A stretch of 64,000 bases of DNA. Origin: an uncultured Peptococcaceae bacterium (GTDB lineage Bacteria > Bacillota > Limnochordia > Darwinibacteriales > Darwinibacteriaceae). Shown piece by piece: positions 7,336 through 63,388 of the stretch. How positions within the stretch are numbered: position 1 is the first letter of the stretch; every line of letters starts with the position of its first letter. The notes beneath the pieces are model-generated. The model did no database searches, was not told the origin of the DNA, and saw nothing but the letters and a program-made list of their open reading frames with translations. Location of the stretch: NCBI GenBank assembly GCA_937988745.1, contig CALKAR010000207.1:3394-67393 (forward strand). The letters are read 5' to 3'. Position numbers and translations under genes: made by a program.

Positions 7336-8040
7336 TCAATTAAGCAGTCCCAAAAAGTACTGGAAGTGACCAGTGAGCATTAAAACACCGATCAGCACCA
7401 GCAGTCCACCTGAGATGCGCTGGATGTACTTAAGATTCTGCTTGATAAAACCCAATACGCCCTGCAGCTTATGCCACAGAAGAGCCGTCAAAATGAAAGG
7501 TATACCTAGCCCTATTCCAAAAACAAACAGGAGCGCCATGCCCGCACGCAGTGTCTGCGTGTGAGATGCCAGCAGCAGTGCGGTTCCCAAAAACGCCCCG
7601 AGACATGGTGTCCATGCCACTGAGAAGGCTCCTCCAAAGACTAAGCTAGACACAAAACCTAAATCGGAGGTCTTGGCCTGCACACTGCTGCTGCGGTTTA
7701 ACAATCCAATTCGGATCAGCCCTAAGAAATTGAGGCCAAAGAGAATGACTACAATACCGCTGACCCTGATCAGTGCCTGTCGGTACTCAACCAACAGGCT
7801 GCCTATCGTAGAGGCCGTAGCTCCAAGAAGCACAAACACTACGGTAAATCCCAGCACAAAGCCTACTACATTCCGAAACAAGCGGCTTCGGTCTACCGTC
7901 TCTGGATCGCTGCCAGCCAGGTACATCAAGTAGACTGGCAGAAGAGGTAGAATGCACGGCGATAGGAAGGCCAAGAGGCCTTCGACAAAGATCAGGCCGA
8001 ATAAGGCTGGAGTCACCTCAGGTAGTGCCTGTGCAAACAT
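7336..8040 (-). CDS. ccdA: Cytochrome c biogenesis / thiol-disulfide electron transporter CcdA (DsbD family)
   Basis: It is a six-TM protein with LSPCILPLLPVYL and WTPCLGAFLG Cys motifs. Its ATG overlaps the stop of the upstream thioredoxin gene by 1 nt (TAATG). Confidence 0.85.
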   Translation of the reverse strand: MFAQALPEVTPALFGLIFVEGLLAFLSPCILPLLPVYLMYLAGSDPETVDRSRLFRNVVGFVLGFTVVFVLLGATASTIGSLLVEYRQALIRVSGIVVILFGLNFLGLIRIGLLNRSSSVQAKTSDLGFVSSLVFGGAFSVAWTPCLGAFLGTALLLASHTQTLRAGMALLFVFGIGLGIPFILTALLWHKLQGVLGFIKQNLKYIQRISGGLLVLIGVLMLTGHFQYFLGLLN

Positions 8041-8549
8041 TATTTTGCCTCCTCAATCAAGTGCTTAACCGCAGCATAACTAGCGGGGCCGATGATGTAG
8101 TTATCCATATAACCATCAGGATCAATTACAACGGTCACGGGAATTCCGGGAAGCCCGAATATCCGTCCCCCTACCGTTCCATCATCATGCAAGTTGAGGA
8201 ATGTAAAGCCGTTGTCCGTCAGATACTTCTCGCCGCTGGCGACGGTTTCCCTGAACCCATCGATCTGGTTCAGCATTAGAAGCACTGCCTCACCCGTTTC
8301 CTCCAGCTCCTCATGGAGTCTCTGGAAATCAGGCATTTCAGCCCGGCAGGGTGGACACCAGCTTGCCCAGAAGTTCAGGACCACTACCTTACCTGCATAG
8401 TCAGAGAGAGAGACTGGTTCACCACGGTTGGACATCAGTGTGAAGTTCGGTACCAGCGGCTTCTCCGTTTCGGCCGCAGCCTGATAAGGAAGTAGAACAA
8501 GCCCAACCAACAGGCAAATTCCCAGCACAATCCCGATATTCCACCTCAT
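8040..8549 (-). CDS. Membrane-anchored TlpA/ResA-like thiol-disulfide oxidoreductase
   Basis: It has an N-terminal anchor, MRWNIGIVLGICLLVGLVLLP. The thioredoxin motif is NFWASWCPPCRAEMP. Confidence 0.85.
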   Translation of the reverse strand: MRWNIGIVLGICLLVGLVLLPYQAAAETEKPLVPNFTLMSNRGEPVSLSDYAGKVVVLNFWASWCPPCRAEMPDFQRLHEELEETGEAVLLMLNQIDGFRETVASGEKYLTDNGFTFLNLHDDGTVGGRIFGLPGIPVTVVIDPDGYMDNYIIGPASYAAVKHLIEEAK

Positions 8550-57043: not shown

Positions 57044-57193
57044 CTATTTGGTCTTAGGACCCGATGCTGCTACCGCCAATTCCTCCAATACCTCGAGCTG
57101 TTGTTCCAGTTTCTTCTGCTGGACGTGCACGTAGCCTGTATACCCTAGAAGCAGCAGCCATACAATGCTGTATCCGACTACAAAGTAGACCAT
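57044..57193 (-). CDS. ccmD: CcmD-like small membrane protein (49 aa), absent from the ORF track
   Basis: My translation is MVYFVVGYSIVWLLLLGYTGYVHVQQKKLEQQLEVLEELAVAASGPKTK. It is one TM helix plus a charged coiled tail. ATG 57193 lies 6 nt after GGGGAG, and the gene sits directly downstream of ccmC. Confidence 0.65.
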   Translation of the reverse strand: MVYFVVGYSIVWLLLLGYTGYVHVQQKKLEQQLEVLEELAVAASGPKTK

Positions 57194-57218: not shown

Positions 57219-57890
57219 TTAATAGACCAGATTTTCCTTTAGCGCTTCTATCCTCTTTCGCAGGCGCAGTACGCGCAGCCGCATTCCCATCAGATATGCG
57301 TACAGTGCTGAGAAAGTAATAATGCTAGCAAATAAAGCGGTTTTCATCCTAGGATCCAGATTCATTCCCTCGCTAGTTACGACAACAGGATGGATCGAGC
57401 GCCACCATCTCGCAGAATAAAAAACCAGCGGCACATTAACAAAAGCGATAATCCCATAAACGGCTGCAAACCGCCGCCTACTGTCTGACACTCCCCCGCC
57501 CTGCAGTGCGATATATGCCACATACATAAACCACAGAACAAGAGTGGTCGTAAGCCGTGGATCCCAAGTCCACCAGGTATTCCAAATCGGATAGGCCCAG
57601 ATAGGCCCTGTCAGAAGTGTGCAGCTTATAAACACTACGCCGATCTCTGCTGAAGCAACCGCCACTTGGTTTACTTCTTCGCTGCGGCGCCACAAGAAGA
57701 GAATGCTGCAGATGAACACCACCACAAATGCGAGCATCCCTATCCATGCGGAACCAACATGGAAATAGAATACCTTCTGCACCACGCCCATAGTGCGTTC
57801 GATAGGCGCGTAGATACCTATGATGTAAATATTAGCTAGAATCAATCCAGCAAGAACAAGAAAACCAACATTTCTCCGATCAAATTCCAT
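57219..57890 (-). CDS. ccmC: Haem exporter / haem-handling protein CcmC
   Basis: Motifs are FYFHVGSAW (His), the WWD motif WNTWWTWDPRLT, and the second His in ARWWRSIHP. Confidence 0.9.
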   Translation of the reverse strand: MEFDRRNVGFLVLAGLILANIYIIGIYAPIERTMGVVQKVFYFHVGSAWIGMLAFVVVFICSILFLWRRSEEVNQVAVASAEIGVVFISCTLLTGPIWAYPIWNTWWTWDPRLTTTLVLWFMYVAYIALQGGGVSDSRRRFAAVYGIIAFVNVPLVFYSARWWRSIHPVVVTSEGMNLDPRMKTALFASIITFSALYAYLMGMRLRVLRLRKRIEALKENLVY

Positions 57891-57892
57891 GT

Positions 57893-58573
57893 CTAGCCCT
57901 CCAACACAAACTCAAACATGATAAGGGGCAGCACTGTAAAGAGAAGGTCATAAGCCCCTAGAAAGTAGACCCATCCCAAGGCACTTCTTCCCACTCCCAT
58001 AAGTGCTGAGTCTGAACAGCGCACCACCCCGATAAACAGAGGTATCAAGAGAGGAAACATCAATATCGGCAGCAGCATCCTAGCGTTCGGGATCTGAACG
58101 GTCATGGCCGACAGCATAGTGCCCACAGACGCCAATCCCCAACTGCCCAGCACAAGAGCAGTCAGGAGAAGCCCGATGTTCGCTCCCGAACAAGAAACAT
58201 CTGAAAAGATCCAAAGTACAGGCAGAATGATCAATTCAAGGACCAAGAGAACCGTGAAGTTGACCAGCGTCTTCGCAGTAAAGATTATACCTTTATCGCC
58301 CACGGCAATTAATAGTGCATCAATCGCACTGTTTTCGTTTTCGCGCGTAAACGAACGCTGTACCGCAAGTACTGCTGCAAAAAAGATTGTCACCCACAGT
58401 ACTGCCGGTAGAACCCGGCTCGTATCCACGTCTGTAAGCTGAAAAGCAAAGCTTGTGATAAATACAAGCATGATCCCAAAAACGACGGTGGAGAGAAAGT
58501 CATCGAGTTGGCGCAGTTCCTGCTTAAGATCTCTGAAGTATATAACCTTAGTTTTTTGCATGTATCTTCTCAT
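57893..58573 (-). CDS. ccmB: Haem exporter membrane protein CcmB
   Basis: It is a six-TM protein between ccmA and ccmC. Its start overlaps ccmA by 4 nt. Confidence 0.8.
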   Translation of the reverse strand: MRRYMQKTKVIYFRDLKQELRQLDDFLSTVVFGIMLVFITSFAFQLTDVDTSRVLPAVLWVTIFFAAVLAVQRSFTRENENSAIDALLIAVGDKGIIFTAKTLVNFTVLLVLELIILPVLWIFSDVSCSGANIGLLLTALVLGSWGLASVGTMLSAMTVQIPNARMLLPILMFPLLIPLFIGVVRCSDSALMGVGRSALGWVYFLGAYDLLFTVLPLIMFEFVLEG

Positions 58574-59202
58574 CGCGCACCTCTCCGGTTGACCTTACCT
58601 TCCGCTAATTCTAAATGTTCGTAGCGAAGGTCACCCAACAGATGAGGGTCATGGCTCACCACAATCTGTAAAGTTCTTGAGCGCAGCTCGCTCAAAACAC
58701 TGCGCAGCAGCTCCTGACCGCTGAAATCAAGTCCGGTGAAGGGTTCATCATACAAAATCAGCTTGGGCTCAATTAGAAGTGCCCGAGCCAGTACTAGTCT
58801 CTGCTGCATTCCTCGGGATAGAATCTTCGCACGCTCATGCCGGAATATCCAAAGGTCCATCAGCCGTAAGAGATTTTCAATGCGTCCTAAAGGCTTATCA
58901 TACAGCTCAGCAAAAAACTGCATGTTTTCCAGCACTGTTAGACTTTCGTACAGCATCGGCTCATGAGCCACATAACTGATAGACCCATGTTCAATACTGT
59001 AGGGGGATCCATTCCACAAAACCTGACCGCTGGTCGGTCTACTTAACCCCGCCAGTATGCGCAGCATTGTGGTCTTACCCCCGCCGTTTGCACCAGTCAC
59101 CACGATCAAATCACCAGTCGCAGCACTGAATGAAACGTCACGCAGAACCATACGGCTTCCCAATCTCTTTGAGAGGTTCAAGACTTCAAGCCGATCCGAC
59201 AT
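58570..59202 (-). CDS. ccmA: Haem ABC exporter ATP-binding protein CcmA
   Basis: Motifs are Walker A GANGGGKTT, the signature LSRGMQQR and Walker B LILYDEP. It overlaps the ccmF end by 17 nt. Confidence 0.9.
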   Translation of the reverse strand: MSDRLEVLNLSKRLGSRMVLRDVSFSAATGDLIVVTGANGGGKTTMLRILAGLSRPTSGQVLWNGSPYSIEHGSISYVAHEPMLYESLTVLENMQFFAELYDKPLGRIENLLRLMDLWIFRHERAKILSRGMQQRLVLARALLIEPKLILYDEPFTGLDFSGQELLRSVLSELRSRTLQIVVSHDPHLLGDLRYEHLELAEGKVNRRGAR

Positions 59203-61042
59203 TTTTATCCCCCTTTAAAAGGAGAAGTACACCAAGAAATACAACTGCGGCACCGGCCCAAATCCAGCTCACAAAAGCCAAACGTTTGATGTGAAGCTGT
59301 GCCGTTTGACCCTGCCACCCAGCCAAGTTGAGGTATAAATCTTCAAAAGGCGTGCTGAAGATCCCAACCTCTGTATAAGGCTGATCATCTGTTCCATAAA
59401 AGGTCTTGGAAGATACTAATGTGCCTGCCTTTTCTCCTCCCCGCATAATTTGGAGCGCCGTCTGCACGTTGTAGTAGTCTACACCCCACTGCACTTGAAG
59501 CCCGGGATATTCTAAAGCGTATCCGCCAAACTCGATGGTTTCACCTGGTTCTACCGTACGATAGACCTCCTCTACAAATATGGAAGAGCCAGTGATGCCA
59601 ATCAGCATAACGATTATGCCAATGTGGACCACAATACCACCTACCTGGCGCATCTTTGGCTGCCTGAGGAGGGCAATAGCTTGGCCTGCCAGAGCCCAAC
59701 CTGCCGCGGTAAAGCTGATGCTGCCTAATAGATGGCCGCCGCTGGCCCGATATGAAACCACACCCGCTGTGAGTCCTAGAAGAAATCTACCGATAAACCT
59801 ACGCCTTTCTACAGCAGGATAAGCACCCATCAGGAATACTAGGATGATAAAAAGCGGCACTGAAATGGCGTTGAAGAAACCTTCATCAAGGATCACTTCA
59901 CGTTTTAAGAAAGTGCGGGAGATTAAAGGGAACATCGTTCCCAGAAATACACCAGCAAAGATCAACATGAGGAGAATGATATTGACAAACAAGAACGCGG
60001 CTCTTCTTTGTCCATCTGCAGTGCGAGAAGCGGCTCCCAGAAGAACTCTCCGCCGGCTAATTCCGAGCCCAATAATGAAAATCGCCATGATGAGCAGCGC
60101 ACCGAGGAACACATTCCCCATTGTCTCATTAGAAAAGGCATGGACTGAATCAAGTACACCGCTGCGCGTTAGGTAGGTTCCAAAGATGGTCAGCAAGAAT
60201 GTGATTCCCGCCAGGCTGTAAGAGAGAAGTTCCTTTCCATAGAAATCATTTGGAACAAGCATTGCATGCAGGAACGCGGTAGCTGTCAGCCAAGGGAAGA
60301 GAGAGGCATTTTCCACCGGATCCCAAGCCCAATATCCACCCCATCCCAGTTCGTTATAGGCCCACCACCCTCCAGTGACGATGCCCAGTGTGAGCATGCC
60401 CCAGGCAAAAAGCGCCCAAGAGCGGCACTGCTTCATCCAAGTACCGTGTCCGGGGCTCCATATAAGCTCAGCAGCAGCTAAGGCAATCGGAATTAGACAA
60501 CCGCTGAAACCTAGGAAGAGAATGGGTGGATGGACGATCATCCCCACGCTCTGGAGCATGGGGTTAAGACCTGCCCCATCCCTAGGAATGGGATGAGTGG
60601 CCGCAAAAGGCTGAGACAAAAACAGCAGGATCACAGTGAACAGCACCCGCACTGTGTTGATCATTATATTGAGCTTAATATCCAAATGACCAGTCCGATA
60701 CTTTTTCGCTCCGTGTATATACCATAGAAACAGCGAAATAATCAGGTGCCACAGCAAGAGAGATCCTGCCTGGCCAGCCCAAAAAGCGCTGATTTTATAA
60801 ATAAGCGGCAGACTCCGCTGTGAAGAGCGAGCCACGTAAGCCAAACTGAAATTATCTGTCACGAACGCTATCATCAGAAGGCCTGCGGCAGCAGTGATGC
60901 TCCAAATAGAGACAAGGGACAACCATCGGCTCTGTCTCGATAGTACTTCTTTCTGCTTGTTGATGCCCCAAATGCCGAATAGGATTGCTCCAGAACCCGA
61001 AAAAAAGGTCAGCCACAGAAGGGCTGATCCAACGATGCTCAT
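59186..61042 (-). CDS. ccmF: Cytochrome c haem lyase subunit CcmF
   Basis: It is a 618-aa polytopic protein with the WWD motif WGGYWAWDPVENASLFPWL. Confidence 0.9.
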   Translation of the reverse strand: MSIVGSALLWLTFFSGSGAILFGIWGINKQKEVLSRQSRWLSLVSIWSITAAAGLLMIAFVTDNFSLAYVARSSQRSLPLIYKISAFWAGQAGSLLLWHLIISLFLWYIHGAKKYRTGHLDIKLNIMINTVRVLFTVILLFLSQPFAATHPIPRDGAGLNPMLQSVGMIVHPPILFLGFSGCLIPIALAAAELIWSPGHGTWMKQCRSWALFAWGMLTLGIVTGGWWAYNELGWGGYWAWDPVENASLFPWLTATAFLHAMLVPNDFYGKELLSYSLAGITFLLTIFGTYLTRSGVLDSVHAFSNETMGNVFLGALLIMAIFIIGLGISRRRVLLGAASRTADGQRRAAFLFVNIILLMLIFAGVFLGTMFPLISRTFLKREVILDEGFFNAISVPLFIILVFLMGAYPAVERRRFIGRFLLGLTAGVVSYRASGGHLLGSISFTAAGWALAGQAIALLRQPKMRQVGGIVVHIGIIVMLIGITGSSIFVEEVYRTVEPGETIEFGGYALEYPGLQVQWGVDYYNVQTALQIMRGGEKAGTLVSSKTFYGTDDQPYTEVGIFSTPFEDLYLNLAGWQGQTAQLHIKRLAFVSWIWAGAAVVFLGVLLLLKGDKNVGSA

Positions 61043-61045
61043 ACT

Positions 61046-61429
61046 CTATTCCCCTTCATATTTCGATGGACACTGCAGCATAAGCTTATTGGCGGAAAGG
61101 CCCGCCTCAGATAGAACACCTTCCAAAATGACCTCTTGAGCATGACTGAAGTTATCCGGTATCACACCCTGGTATCTGACGGGAAGTTCCGAATCCCCAT
61201 CAGACAGAGAGAAGCTCAGGAGGGGTTTTTGAGGGTCGTAGACTACAGTATCTTGGAGTACTTCACCCTTAATCCGGATTTTTTGACCATTCATTTGCAA
61301 CGAAGCTGCTTCTGAGATGGTGTAATAATAGACCGCCGCATTTTCAAGAGCCTGGAACGCCAAGAAACCGAGAAGCAGCATGGCACATACAGATGCGGCA
61401 ATAACTACAGGCTTCTTTCTCATCAGCAT
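61046..61429 (-). CDS. ccmE: Haem chaperone CcmE, variant with CxxxY (CPSKY) in place of HxxxY
   Basis: It has an N-terminal anchor, the OB-fold pattern IRIKGEV......YDP....L.F.L.D.......V.Y.G.IPD.F....EVILEG.L, and the C-terminal LMLQCPSKYEGE (codons 61058-61072). The start may be the third codon, ATG 61423, which has better RBS spacing. Confidence 0.85.
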   Translation of the reverse strand: MLMRKKPVVIAASVCAMLLLGFLAFQALENAAVYYYTISEAASLQMNGQKIRIKGEVLQDTVVYDPQKPLLSFSLSDGDSELPVRYQGVIPDNFSHAQEVILEGVLSEAGLSANKLMLQCPSKYEGE

Positions 61430-61461: not shown

Positions 61462-61490
61462 GAGGAAAGTGCCTCAAAAGCACTTTCCTC
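61462..61490 (-). terminator. Intercistronic hairpin between the dihaem protein gene and ccmE (partial terminator or mRNA stabiliser)
   Basis: An 11-bp perfect stem pairs GAGGAAAGTGC with GCACTTTCCTC around a 7-nt loop. On the minus strand a weak U-tract, TCTCGTGTTTAT, follows. Confidence 0.45.
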
Positions 61491-61500
61491 AGCTCTATAA

Positions 61501-62247
61501 TTAATGACCCTCGTGGCAGGGCGCGCAGTCCATCTTGCCGATGGTGTCATCTGCGTAGCCGCCTACGTGACATTCGTAGCAAGCCTTTGTCTCTTCACTC
61601 ATGGCTATGGTTGGTACAAATGTACCAGCTAAAACTTCGTTCATGTAAAGAGCTGTCTGTGCTGCCACATCACCAGTGAGAGCTCCGCAGCGTGGTCCCC
61701 GCTGACTGGCTTTCAAGCCAGAAGCCTTAACCCAGCGAGAAATAGAAACATGACACAAGGGAGAATCCGCGACGCTCTGCACTTCAGCGTTGAGCGGCAG
61801 AGGAGTCTGAGAATACCAGCCCATGACTTCATTAATAATAGCTGTCGCCTGCTGACTGCGGCCAAATACAAGGCCAACCGCCGCGGCGGCACCGTTTAAT
61901 GCACCACAAAGAGAACCCCAACCGGCAACGCCAGCTTTGCCAAAGTTCATCATCTCAGCCGGGATGTAGCAGAAAGGTTCACCTAATTCGGTAGTAAGGG
62001 CCCGGAAAGCAGCCTCACAGCAGCCCTGACCTTCACCGAAGAACTGGACACCAAGTTCCCTCACCTTTTCTACGTCCAAAGGCTTGTCAAAATACTCAAC
62101 CCAAGGATACTCAGGAAGTTCACGTCCTGCTGCTCCTGCCTTAGGTGCTAAAACCCCTAATCCCGAGCTAGCCAAAGCCAAACCGGCAGCCGCTCCACCT
62201 GCACTTACCAAGAACTCACGACGACTGATACGCTTCTTGTTATCCAT
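61501..62247 (-). CDS. Twin-arginine-signal, C_GCAxxG_C_C-type Cys-rich protein with two C-terminal CXXCH haem c sites (split-Soret cytochrome c-like)
   Basis: The Tat signal is MDNKKRISRREFLVSAGGAAAGLALASSGLGVLAPKAGAA. The Cys motifs are GQGCCEAAF, SLCGALNGA, PLCHVS and PRCGALTGD. The last 30 residues carry CYECH and CAPCH. At 248 aa it is close to the roughly 247 residues I recall for the Desulfovibrio desulfuricans split-Soret cytochrome. Confidence 0.7.
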   Translation of the reverse strand: MDNKKRISRREFLVSAGGAAAGLALASSGLGVLAPKAGAAGRELPEYPWVEYFDKPLDVEKVRELGVQFFGEGQGCCEAAFRALTTELGEPFCYIPAEMMNFGKAGVAGWGSLCGALNGAAAAVGLVFGRSQQATAIINEVMGWYSQTPLPLNAEVQSVADSPLCHVSISRWVKASGLKASQRGPRCGALTGDVAAQTALYMNEVLAGTFVPTIAMSEETKACYECHVGGYADDTIGKMDCAPCHEGH

Positions 62248-62296: not shown

Positions 62297-63043
62297 CTAC
62301 TGCTTCTTATCCTTTTTTCTAACCACCACCTTTCCCAAGAGGATGCTGAGCTCATACAACAGGAGCATCGGCCCAGCCATCAGCGTTTGAGAAATCACAT
62401 CAGGTGGCGTAAAAATTGCTGCAGCAACAAAAACCCCAAGAATTATGAACCTGCGATAGCGAATCAGCGTCTGCGGCGTCAGGATGCCTGCCCAGCAGAG
62501 CAGAACTACCACTAACGGCATTTGAAAGACTACACCAAAAGGCAGAATAATTCCTAAAACAAAGGACACATAGCTGCCAATAGAAATGACAGGCTGCAGT
62601 GTTCCACTGCCAAAACTCATAAAAAAACGGTAAGCTATTGGGACAATCACCTGATAGGCAAAGACTACGCCCCCTGCAAACATCAGGGCTGCAAAAGGAA
62701 TGCCAACAAACAGTGCCCACTTTTCCACATCATTTAAAGCTGGTGTAACAAAACCCACCAACTGGTACAGGATTACAGGCGATGCTGCTGCCAATCCGAA
62801 GACAAGAGCCAATTTAAGGTGAACAAAAAAGGCCTCGCCTGGATACAAGTACACCAGCGGACCTGGAAGTTCTGCTATGTACGCTACTATCCGGTCAGAT
62901 AAATAAAAGCCAACTACCACGGCAATAGCAACAGCCAGCAGCGTAATAATGATTCTCCGCCGCAGCTCAGTAAGGTGTTCTACCAAAGTCATGTCAGACT
63001 GTTGGTTCGCTTTTCTGCGCAACCTCTGGAGCATATCCACCAA
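62297..63043 (-). CDS. tatC: Sec-independent translocase subunit TatC
   Basis: The sequence is MTLVEHLTELRRRII.. followed by six TM segments (..FLSPGL-like, ..TPPDVISQ..). The exact start is uncertain: GTG 63043, ATG 63034 or ATG 62992. Confidence 0.9.
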   Translation of the reverse strand: MVDMLQRLRRKANQQSDMTLVEHLTELRRRIIITLLAVAIAVVVGFYLSDRIVAYIAELPGPLVYLYPGEAFFVHLKLALVFGLAAASPVILYQLVGFVTPALNDVEKWALFVGIPFAALMFAGGVVFAYQVIVPIAYRFFMSFGSGTLQPVISIGSYVSFVLGIILPFGVVFQMPLVVVLLCWAGILTPQTLIRYRRFIILGVFVAAAIFTPPDVISQTLMAGPMLLLYELSILLGKVVVRKKDKKQ

Positions 63044-63064: not shown

Positions 63065-63241
63065 TTATTCCTTGTTAGAAGCTTCTGAAGGGGAATCATC
63101 TGTAATTCCCTTGGCGGCGTCTCTAAATTCCCTCATCGCATTACCCACCGCTTTACCCATTTCAGGCAGCTTCGATGGCCCGAAAACAAGCAGGGCGATG
63201 ATCAGGATAACGACTAATTCGCCAAATCCAATTCTACCCAA
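63065..63241 (-). CDS. tatA: Sec-independent translocase subunit TatA/E
   Basis: MGRIGFGELVVILIIALLVFGPSKLPEMGKAVGNAMREFRDA has the canonical TatA N-terminus. The start was moved from the track ATG 63277 to TTG 63241, 8 nt after GGGAGG. Confidence 0.85.
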   Translation of the reverse strand: MGRIGFGELVVILIIALLVFGPSKLPEMGKAVGNAMREFRDAAKGITDDSPSEASNKE

Positions 63242-63388
63242 CTGTATTTCCTCCCTTGTGATCGTTTTATCATTCACATATTAAATTACCACTAATTAAC
63301 ATGCAAGTCAAGGAAATGCCCAGCTGTTCTGATTTTTGCAGGGTTCTTTCTTTTTGCGGAGAACTTACCGAAAACAGGAGGGGATCAT

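Follow-up and report, generated by a model that had tools for sequence, protein, structure and literature searches.

A Cys-type CcmE encoded beside a split-Soret-like cytochrome in a Bacillota MAG

We analyzed a stretch of 64,000 nucleotides (the window) from a Bacillota MAG and found that the ORF at 61046..61429 very probably encodes a functional CcmE of System I*, that is, a membrane-anchored OB-fold haem chaperone that uses Cys120 as haem carrier in a CcmH-independent pathway. Its most probable client is the split-Soret-like cytochrome (Ssc) encoded just upstream. The assignment draws on what was observed for the CcmE system: its homology and fold, the equivalence of key residues, the gene content of the operon, and how the system is conserved and distributed; a covalent Cys-haem bond and independence from CcmH are inferred by analogy with work on Desulfovibrio and Methanosarcina. 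[quoted passage not shown] The genes concerned lie on the minus strand and are listed from upstream to downstream.

63065..63277, minus strand: tatA (Pfam TatA_B_E, 72.6 bits)
62297..63043, minus strand: tatC (Pfam TatC, 209 bits)
61501..62247, minus strand: ssc, split-Soret-like dihaem cytochrome c, 248 aa (matches to NF047622, PF09719 and TAT_signal)
61462..61490, minus strand: strong hairpin of 11-13 bp in the ssc-ccmE spacer, the top terminator-like site in a scan of the region
61046..61429, minus strand: ccmE, predicted Cys-type (System I*) haem chaperone (Pfam PF03100, alignment with E. coli CcmE, AF2 model)
59186..61042, minus strand: ccmF, haem lyase / holocytochrome c synthase subunit, 618 aa, unsplit (Pfam CcmF_C and Cytochrom_C_asm; TIGR00353)
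58570..59202, minus strand: ccmA, ABC ATPase (TIGR01189, 144.8 bits against a cut-off of 131.6)
57893..58573, minus strand: ccmB, ABC membrane subunit (Pfam CcmB PF03379, 100.4 bits)
57219..57890, minus strand: ccmC, haem loading onto CcmE (TIGR01191, 131.6 bits, below the 186-bit cut-off)
57044..57193, minus strand: 49-aa ccmD from the alternative CcmD family, having a single TM helix plus a charged tail (TIGR04391 CcmD_alt_fam, 33.2 bits against a cut-off of 24)

According to the ORF list and a reading of the reverse strand, the ccmE ORF encodes 127 aa, MLMRKKPVVIAASV...ANKLMLQCPSKYEGE-TAG, with ...KLMLQCPSKYEGE at its C-terminal end. The initial annotation had read the tail as LMLQ-C-PSK-Y-EGE, with Cys at the place of the haem-binding His; the reverse-strand sequence bears this reading out, and the CPSKY codons occupy 61072..61058. 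The protein matched Pfam CcmE PF03100 at 85.9 bits (cut-off 24.6) over model positions 2-97 of 99. The alignment set consisted of the window protein, E. coli K-12 CcmE taken from NC_000913, the His-type CcmE of contig C216 and seven database homologues. MAFFT placed Cys120 and Tyr124 opposite His130 and Tyr134 of E. coli CcmE, and Phe94 and Met117 opposite Phe103 and Leu127. In a phmmer search against the PDB, this residue was matched to the Cys in 2KCT, the CcmE of Desulfovibrio vulgaris. The two comparisons agree that the Cys is homologous to His130, as had been proposed, and the protein is one of the CxxxY type. The residues C-P-S-K-Y-E were invariant across 39 aligned CcmE homologues.

Two circumstances that could have undermined this reading were examined. 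A His/Tyr pair further downstream does not align in place of Cys120 and Tyr124: only three residues follow Tyr124, and the alignment is unambiguous. Truncation by a sequencing error is likewise ruled out. All 53 homologues compared (53/53) end 1-5 residues past CPSKYE, and ccmF starts 3 nt past the ccmE stop; because of these two observations, the short tail is judged from sequence comparison to be natural. The start codon is probably ATG 61423 (Met3), because the GGGGG ribosome-binding site lies 2 nt before ATG 61429 and 8 nt before ATG 61423, and because the near-identical database protein P0001 has 125 aa. The haem Cys would then be Cys118; the numbering of the 127-aa ORF is kept here.

The AF2 model of CcmE (pLDDT 87) contained a helix at residues 6-29, corresponding to an N-terminal membrane anchor, OB-fold strands within residues 50-119, and a low-confidence tail at residues 120-127, in which C120-P-S-K-Y124-EGE is flexible. 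The best fold match in the PDB was 8ce8_E (TMq 0.81), followed by 1j6q, 1sr3 and 2kct, all of which are CcmE structures. The anchor, OB-fold and flexible tail expected of a CcmE are thus all present in the model. The [H/C]xxxY motif required at the His130/Tyr134 position occurs as C120/Y124, and the gene is linked to ccmC, ccmF and ccmAB, as is required of a ccmE. We also observed a His at position 96 (61142-61144), two residues past the Phe103 equivalent of the haem platform. It was almost invariant in the close clade, Halothermothrix orenii included, where the surrounding motif is DNFxHAxEV, and was missing in E. coli CcmE, in the Chloroflexi homologue P0051 and in most phylum-wide copies. 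From this pattern, His96 could be a clade-specific additional haem contact.

We propose that CcmE would face the outer side of the cytoplasmic membrane, where CcmC, with CcmD and the CcmAB ATPase, would offer haem. Cys120 in the flexible CPSKY tail would take the haem covalently, presumably by a thioether linkage to a haem vinyl, with Tyr124 as the ligand of the haem iron. CcmAB would then let holo-CcmE go, and CcmF, working without CcmH, would move the haem to the CxxCH motifs of the apocytochrome, here the Tat-exported split-Soret-like dihaem cytochrome encoded just upstream. The Cys might instead not be the covalent haem site, the haem being carried non-covalently or the Cys having a redox or disulfide role. 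The thioether of haem-CcmE, in its nature and reversibility, has been deemed chemically puzzling (PMC3601427), and a covalent bond is not provable from sequence. However, the Cys is invariant exactly at the His130 position with a Tyr ligand four residues on. The Cys-CcmE of D. desulfuricans binds haem covalently and functions without CcmH (reviewed in PMC3601427). In M. acetivorans, Gupta et al. 2022 found that the CXXXY Cys (C120) of CcmE is required for haem binding, which was abolished by C120A (PMC9084895). D. desulfuricans and M. acetivorans are the only organisms for which covalent attachment to the Cys, with holocytochrome formation relying on it, is known (PMC3601427, PMC9084895). We therefore consider a non-covalent or redox role very unlikely and retain Cys120 as the putative covalent haem carrier.

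The ccmE gene is the first of a compact ccmE-F-A-B-C-D operon with gaps or overlaps of at most 25 nt. Alignment with the E. coli proteins showed that His171, His259, His301 and His473 of CcmF correspond to His173, His261, His303 and His491, and that His44 and His167 of CcmC correspond to His60 and His184. The WWD motifs are kept as WGGYWAWD in CcmF and WNTWWTWD in CcmC, so that the catalytic His and WWD residues are complete in both proteins. The NCBIfam proteobacterial equivalog models match CcmE with scores below their cut-offs, and CcmC and CcmB also fall under such cut-offs, because these proteins diverge from the proteobacterial models. Classical CcmD (PF04995) gave no match; the 49-aa ORF fits the alternative family TIGR04391 instead. 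A DUF4382 lipoprotein was excluded as a member of the system because it is not syntenic in the four nearest MAGs, and System II (ResB) was rejected as another pathway since the genome gave no match above the cut-off. Two further genes with a possible connection to cytochrome maturation occur at the other end of the window.

8040..8549: membrane-anchored TlpA/ResA/CcmG-like thioredoxin with a WCPPC motif (Redoxin and AhpC-TSA, 74-77 bits)
7336..8040: distal ccdA-like gene (PF02683, 69 bits)

These two genes, likewise on the minus strand, overlap by one base and lie approximately 53 kb from the ccm operon. The pair likely serves extracytoplasmic thiol reduction, which makes both genes candidates for the thiol-reduction branch of cytochrome maturation.

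In a genome-wide search, contig C216 (6477 bp) proved to encode the sole CcmH and, with it, another CcmE, which reads HDENY. This contig carries a canonical proteobacterial ccmE(HDENY)-ccmF-ccmG-ccmH-ccmI array and a DsbD_TM gene (loci L001, L002, L120). We considered whether the array is an additional Ccm system of this organism, canonical in type, and reject it as bin contamination. C216 looks like an Alcaligenaceae contaminant because its CcmH is approximately 75% identical to Alcaligenaceae CcmH (Pusillimonas, Allopusillimonas, Paenalcaligenes), because in tetranucleotide composition it correlates with the genome core at 0.41, compared with at least 0.78 for native 6.5-kb chunks (170/170), and because CcmH is rare among relatives. 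CcmH scored above the cut-off in one of 40 relatives, a genome of another family whose CcmE locus (L032) is without the CPSKY motif, and the canonical Ccm set was missing from 38 of the 40; no relative within the family or the order had a CcmH. Annotators of this MAG should accordingly read its apparent second, canonical Ccm system as bin contamination.

No native CcmH was found in the MAG, which is 95.7% complete and contaminated, so that a native CcmH/CcmI may have escaped the assembly. Canonical System I is recognized by His130 within HxxxY and by CcmG and CcmH in the system; the window system has Cys at that position, no native CcmH was found for it, and the canonical set on C216 is foreign. 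Of the features of System I*, it has Cys in place of the haem-binding His, in the typical form CPSKY, and CcmH is absent within the limits of 95.7% completeness.

The contamination also bears on whether the ccm operon or the CcmE ORF itself could be an artefact, namely a contaminant contig, a decaying relic or a sequencing-error truncation. The bin has 5.5% contamination by a CheckM-type estimate, contains the foreign C216 and includes many small contigs of deviant composition. On the other hand, the 97-kb contig C207 that carries the operon has a tetranucleotide correlation of 0.98 with the genome core, and the same cassette occurs in a genus-mate (CcmE 80% identical) and in 15 of the family's 24 genomes. 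No catalytic residue is lost, and the C-terminus is equally long in all homologues. An artefact is thus extremely improbable, and we treat the operon as native and functional. Regarding the bin as a whole, 190 further contigs of under 40 kb (0.86 Mb) had a tetranucleotide correlation lower than the 1st percentile for native 6.5-kb chunks, a count inflated by their shortness, and the bin measures 3.15 Mb versus 2.3 Mb in the genus-mate. Its contamination may therefore exceed the quoted 5.5%.

The distribution of the motif was surveyed at three levels. The pattern [MLQ][LVT][QK]CPSKYE was matched by CcmE relatives from at least 573 species-representative genomes. The best 80 of these include, within Bacillota, digester MAGs, Limnochordia, Halanaerobiales, Desulfosporosinus, Cytobacillus, Terrihalobacillus and Veillonellaceae, and, outside it, Chloroflexota, KSB1, Acidobacteriota, Desulfovibrionaceae, Bacteroidota and more. 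The genomes that carry CPSKY include those of cultured Desulfosporosinus, Cytobacillus, Terrihalobacillus and Halothermothrix. Among the 40 relatives, 25 have a CcmE gene, and CPSKY was present in 24 of 26 matches to the window CcmE (G000 and relatives). For the phylum, 400 genomes were drawn evenly, and all 105 CcmE copies in them were retrieved. CcmE was present in 93 of the 400 genomes and was Cys-type in every one (93/93) and His-type in none (0/93). Exact CPSKY accounted for 80 of the 105 copies and near variants (CPSRY, CPTKY, CPSSY, CPSTY, CVSKY, CASKY, CPDHY, CPTRY, CPTRF) for 23; the remaining two were extra paralogues without the motif, and His occurred in none (0/105). The two paralogues (G222:C281:10657-10914 and G187:C202:1081-1323; L223, L226) have no C/HxxxY, end in ...WTASSKQDHYER and lie approximately 2-3 kb from CcmH genes, and the same genomes also hold normal CPSKY copies.

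Within the sampled phylum, the supposed minority variant is therefore the sole form of CcmE found, and the initial view that the variant is unusual in a Gram-positive-like context does not stand; Firmicutes were already represented in the literature (PMC3601427). Its association of the variant with systems lacking CcmH stands in part: the native genome shows no CcmH, but CcmH occurs in 49 of the 93 CcmE-bearing phylum genomes. CcmH loss is common, yet it is uncoupled from the Cys, because these 49 Cys-type genomes keep CcmH. Stevens et al. 2011 described System I* in archaea, Desulfovibrio and other bacteria (PMC3601427). Most of their Cys-CcmE examples were from delta-proteobacteria, with Chloroflexi and Firmicutes also represented; CPSKY was found in 25 of 36 variant CcmEs, about one third kept CcmH, and the absence of CcmH was frequent but non-defining for System I* (PMC3601427). 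The CcmE itself is thus an ordinary finding, as publications from 2006-2011 onwards cover Cys/CPSKY, its presence in Firmicutes and its partial CcmH independence.

In a CcmF tree (a quick IQ-TREE run with SH-aLRT support only), the window protein grouped with those of four Bacillota digester MAGs at 100% support, with Halanaerobiales as the sister group, apart from the Desulfosporosinus/Bacillaceae clade and from Desulfovibrionaceae. Because CcmF sits in this Bacillota MAG clade beside Halanaerobiales, the Ccm system is, on phylogenetic grounds, to be regarded as resident in the lineage and not as a recent import, and a recent transfer from Desulfovibrio is unsupported for the same reason.

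The description of the host as Gram-positive-like may not fit its envelope. BamA (Omp85 with POTRA domains) with an adjacent Skp/OmpH is encoded on contig C253 (13278-15278), and a second Skp on contig C134 (8255-8584), both of native composition; LpxC and TamB, searched for as outer-membrane markers, were not found in the genome. These gene contents suggest a Bacillota lineage with an outer membrane, possibly LPS-less, and the host may not be a classical monoderm.

The cassette context is more interesting than CcmE itself. The genes tatA, tatC and ssc lie immediately upstream of ccmE, and the four nearest named MAGs share the syntenic block tatA-tatC-ssc-ccmEFABCD. Ssc combines a Tat signal (SRREFL) with a C_GCAxxG_C_C domain and a C-terminal pair of CxxCH motifs, and it scored 145.8 bits against the split-Soret model NF047622, below the 400-bit equivalog cut-off. 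Tat signals on split-Soret cytochromes were noted earlier in archaea (PMC4429474), and Ssc has been reported from a Natranaerobiia isolate (PMC8359318). A CxxCH census of the 3.15-Mb MAG, based on crude calling of ORFs of at least 60 aa, gave Ssc alone with two or more motifs; as the MAG is 95.7% complete, more cytochromes are conceivable. The 24 ORFs with a single CxxCH resembled radical-SAM activases, thymidine kinase, ribosomal protein L31 and similar non-cytochromes. Among the 24 genomes of family f1, full-length Ssc and CcmE* were both present in 15, adjacent in 15/15, and both absent from 9, although these genomes are related and not independent, so that the counts overstate the strength of the association. 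Divergent second Ssc paralogues of 40-43% identity were also observed in two relatives (G007:C87:17899-18627 and G024:C172:232-963). Each contains one in-frame TGA, which is consistent with selenocysteine members of the C_GCAxxG_C_C '(seleno)protein' family.

These observations indicate that Ssc is most probably a client, and perhaps the sole client, of the Ccm system. A more specific proposal is that the minimal System I* (CcmABCDEF with Cys-CcmE, without CcmH/CcmI) would be a dedicated single-client machine, combined with its own TatAC in one cassette, for an Ssc that is exported by Tat, presumably pre-folded around a cytoplasmic Fe-S centre, and then receives two haems. We put this forward tentatively, at a little short of an even chance. 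Alternatively, the operon could serve general cytochrome c maturation with several clients, the adjacency of ssc being incidental. CcmE* occurs without Ssc in other families of the order (G026, G034, G036, G037), which indicates that the machinery is not intrinsically Ssc-specific, and monohaem clients are poorly recognizable by CxxCH alone. Against this, Ssc is alone in the 3.15 Mb in having more than one CxxCH motif, the 24 ORFs with just one resemble non-cytochromes, and the match between Ssc and CcmE* in f1, adjacency included, is exact (15 genomes with both, 9 with neither). General maturation is thus possible but rather unlikely. If the dedicated single-client proposal is true, the cassette would provide a natural minimal system for Ccm haem hand-off to a pre-folded Tat substrate and for the role of the Cys-haem bond. 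The compact tatAC-ssc-ccmEFABCD arrangement is also a handy minimal construct for heterologous study of System I*.

Because a conserved hairpin lies between ssc and ccmE, co-transcription of the two genes is uncertain. The stem GGAAAGCG/CGCTTTCC was kept in the ssc-ccmE spacers of all relatives examined, with a two-sided, compensatory change to GTGC/GCAC in the window's genus g1, and a T-run followed the hairpin in some copies only. The conservation is compatible with an intra-operon attenuator or mRNA stabiliser, which may set the ratio of cytochrome to machinery expression.

Compared with known systems, the window CcmE resembles that of the Desulfovibrio System I* in having Cys for His130, CPxxY, a short tail and an OB-fold (D. 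vulgaris 2KCT), and Desulfovibrionaceae loci share the gene order ccmE-F-A-B-C. The Desulfovibrio system works in E. coli without CcmH or CcmG (PMC3601427). The two differ in that identity is approximately 33%, CcmF falls in a separate clade and the window host is a Bacillota MAG. They also differ in clients, with dozens of multihaem cytochromes in Desulfovibrio versus apparently one dihaem protein in the window organism.

E. coli CcmE (1SR3; 8CE8 chain E, CcmABCDE) shares the TM anchor, the OB-fold, the flexible haem tail and the equivalents of Phe103, Leu127 and Tyr134, and its partners CcmABCD and CcmF have the same conserved His and WWD residues. In contrast, His130 is replaced by Cys in the window protein, the C-terminal extension of approximately 25 residues is missing, identity is 29%, and the window operon is without CcmG/H. 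The streamlined CcmABCEF system of Methanosarcina acetivorans (PMC9084895) is alike in CXXXY, with an essential Cys120, and in the absence of CcmH/CcmI. It is unlike the window system in being without CcmD and in having a split CcmF1/F2 and dispersed genes, whereas the window has CcmD_alt, a single 618-aa CcmF and one operon.

Within Bacillota, CcmE of Halothermothrix orenii has the same KLMLQCPSKYE tail and is 44% identical, and the CcmF of Halanaerobiales forms the sister clade. The tail KLMLQCPSKYE is also found in the CcmEs of Desulfosporosinus, Cytobacillus and Terrihalobacillus. The operons of Desulfosporosinus and Bacillaceae carry CcmH between ccmF and ccmA, whereas those of the window's family are without it and have tatAC-ssc upstream.
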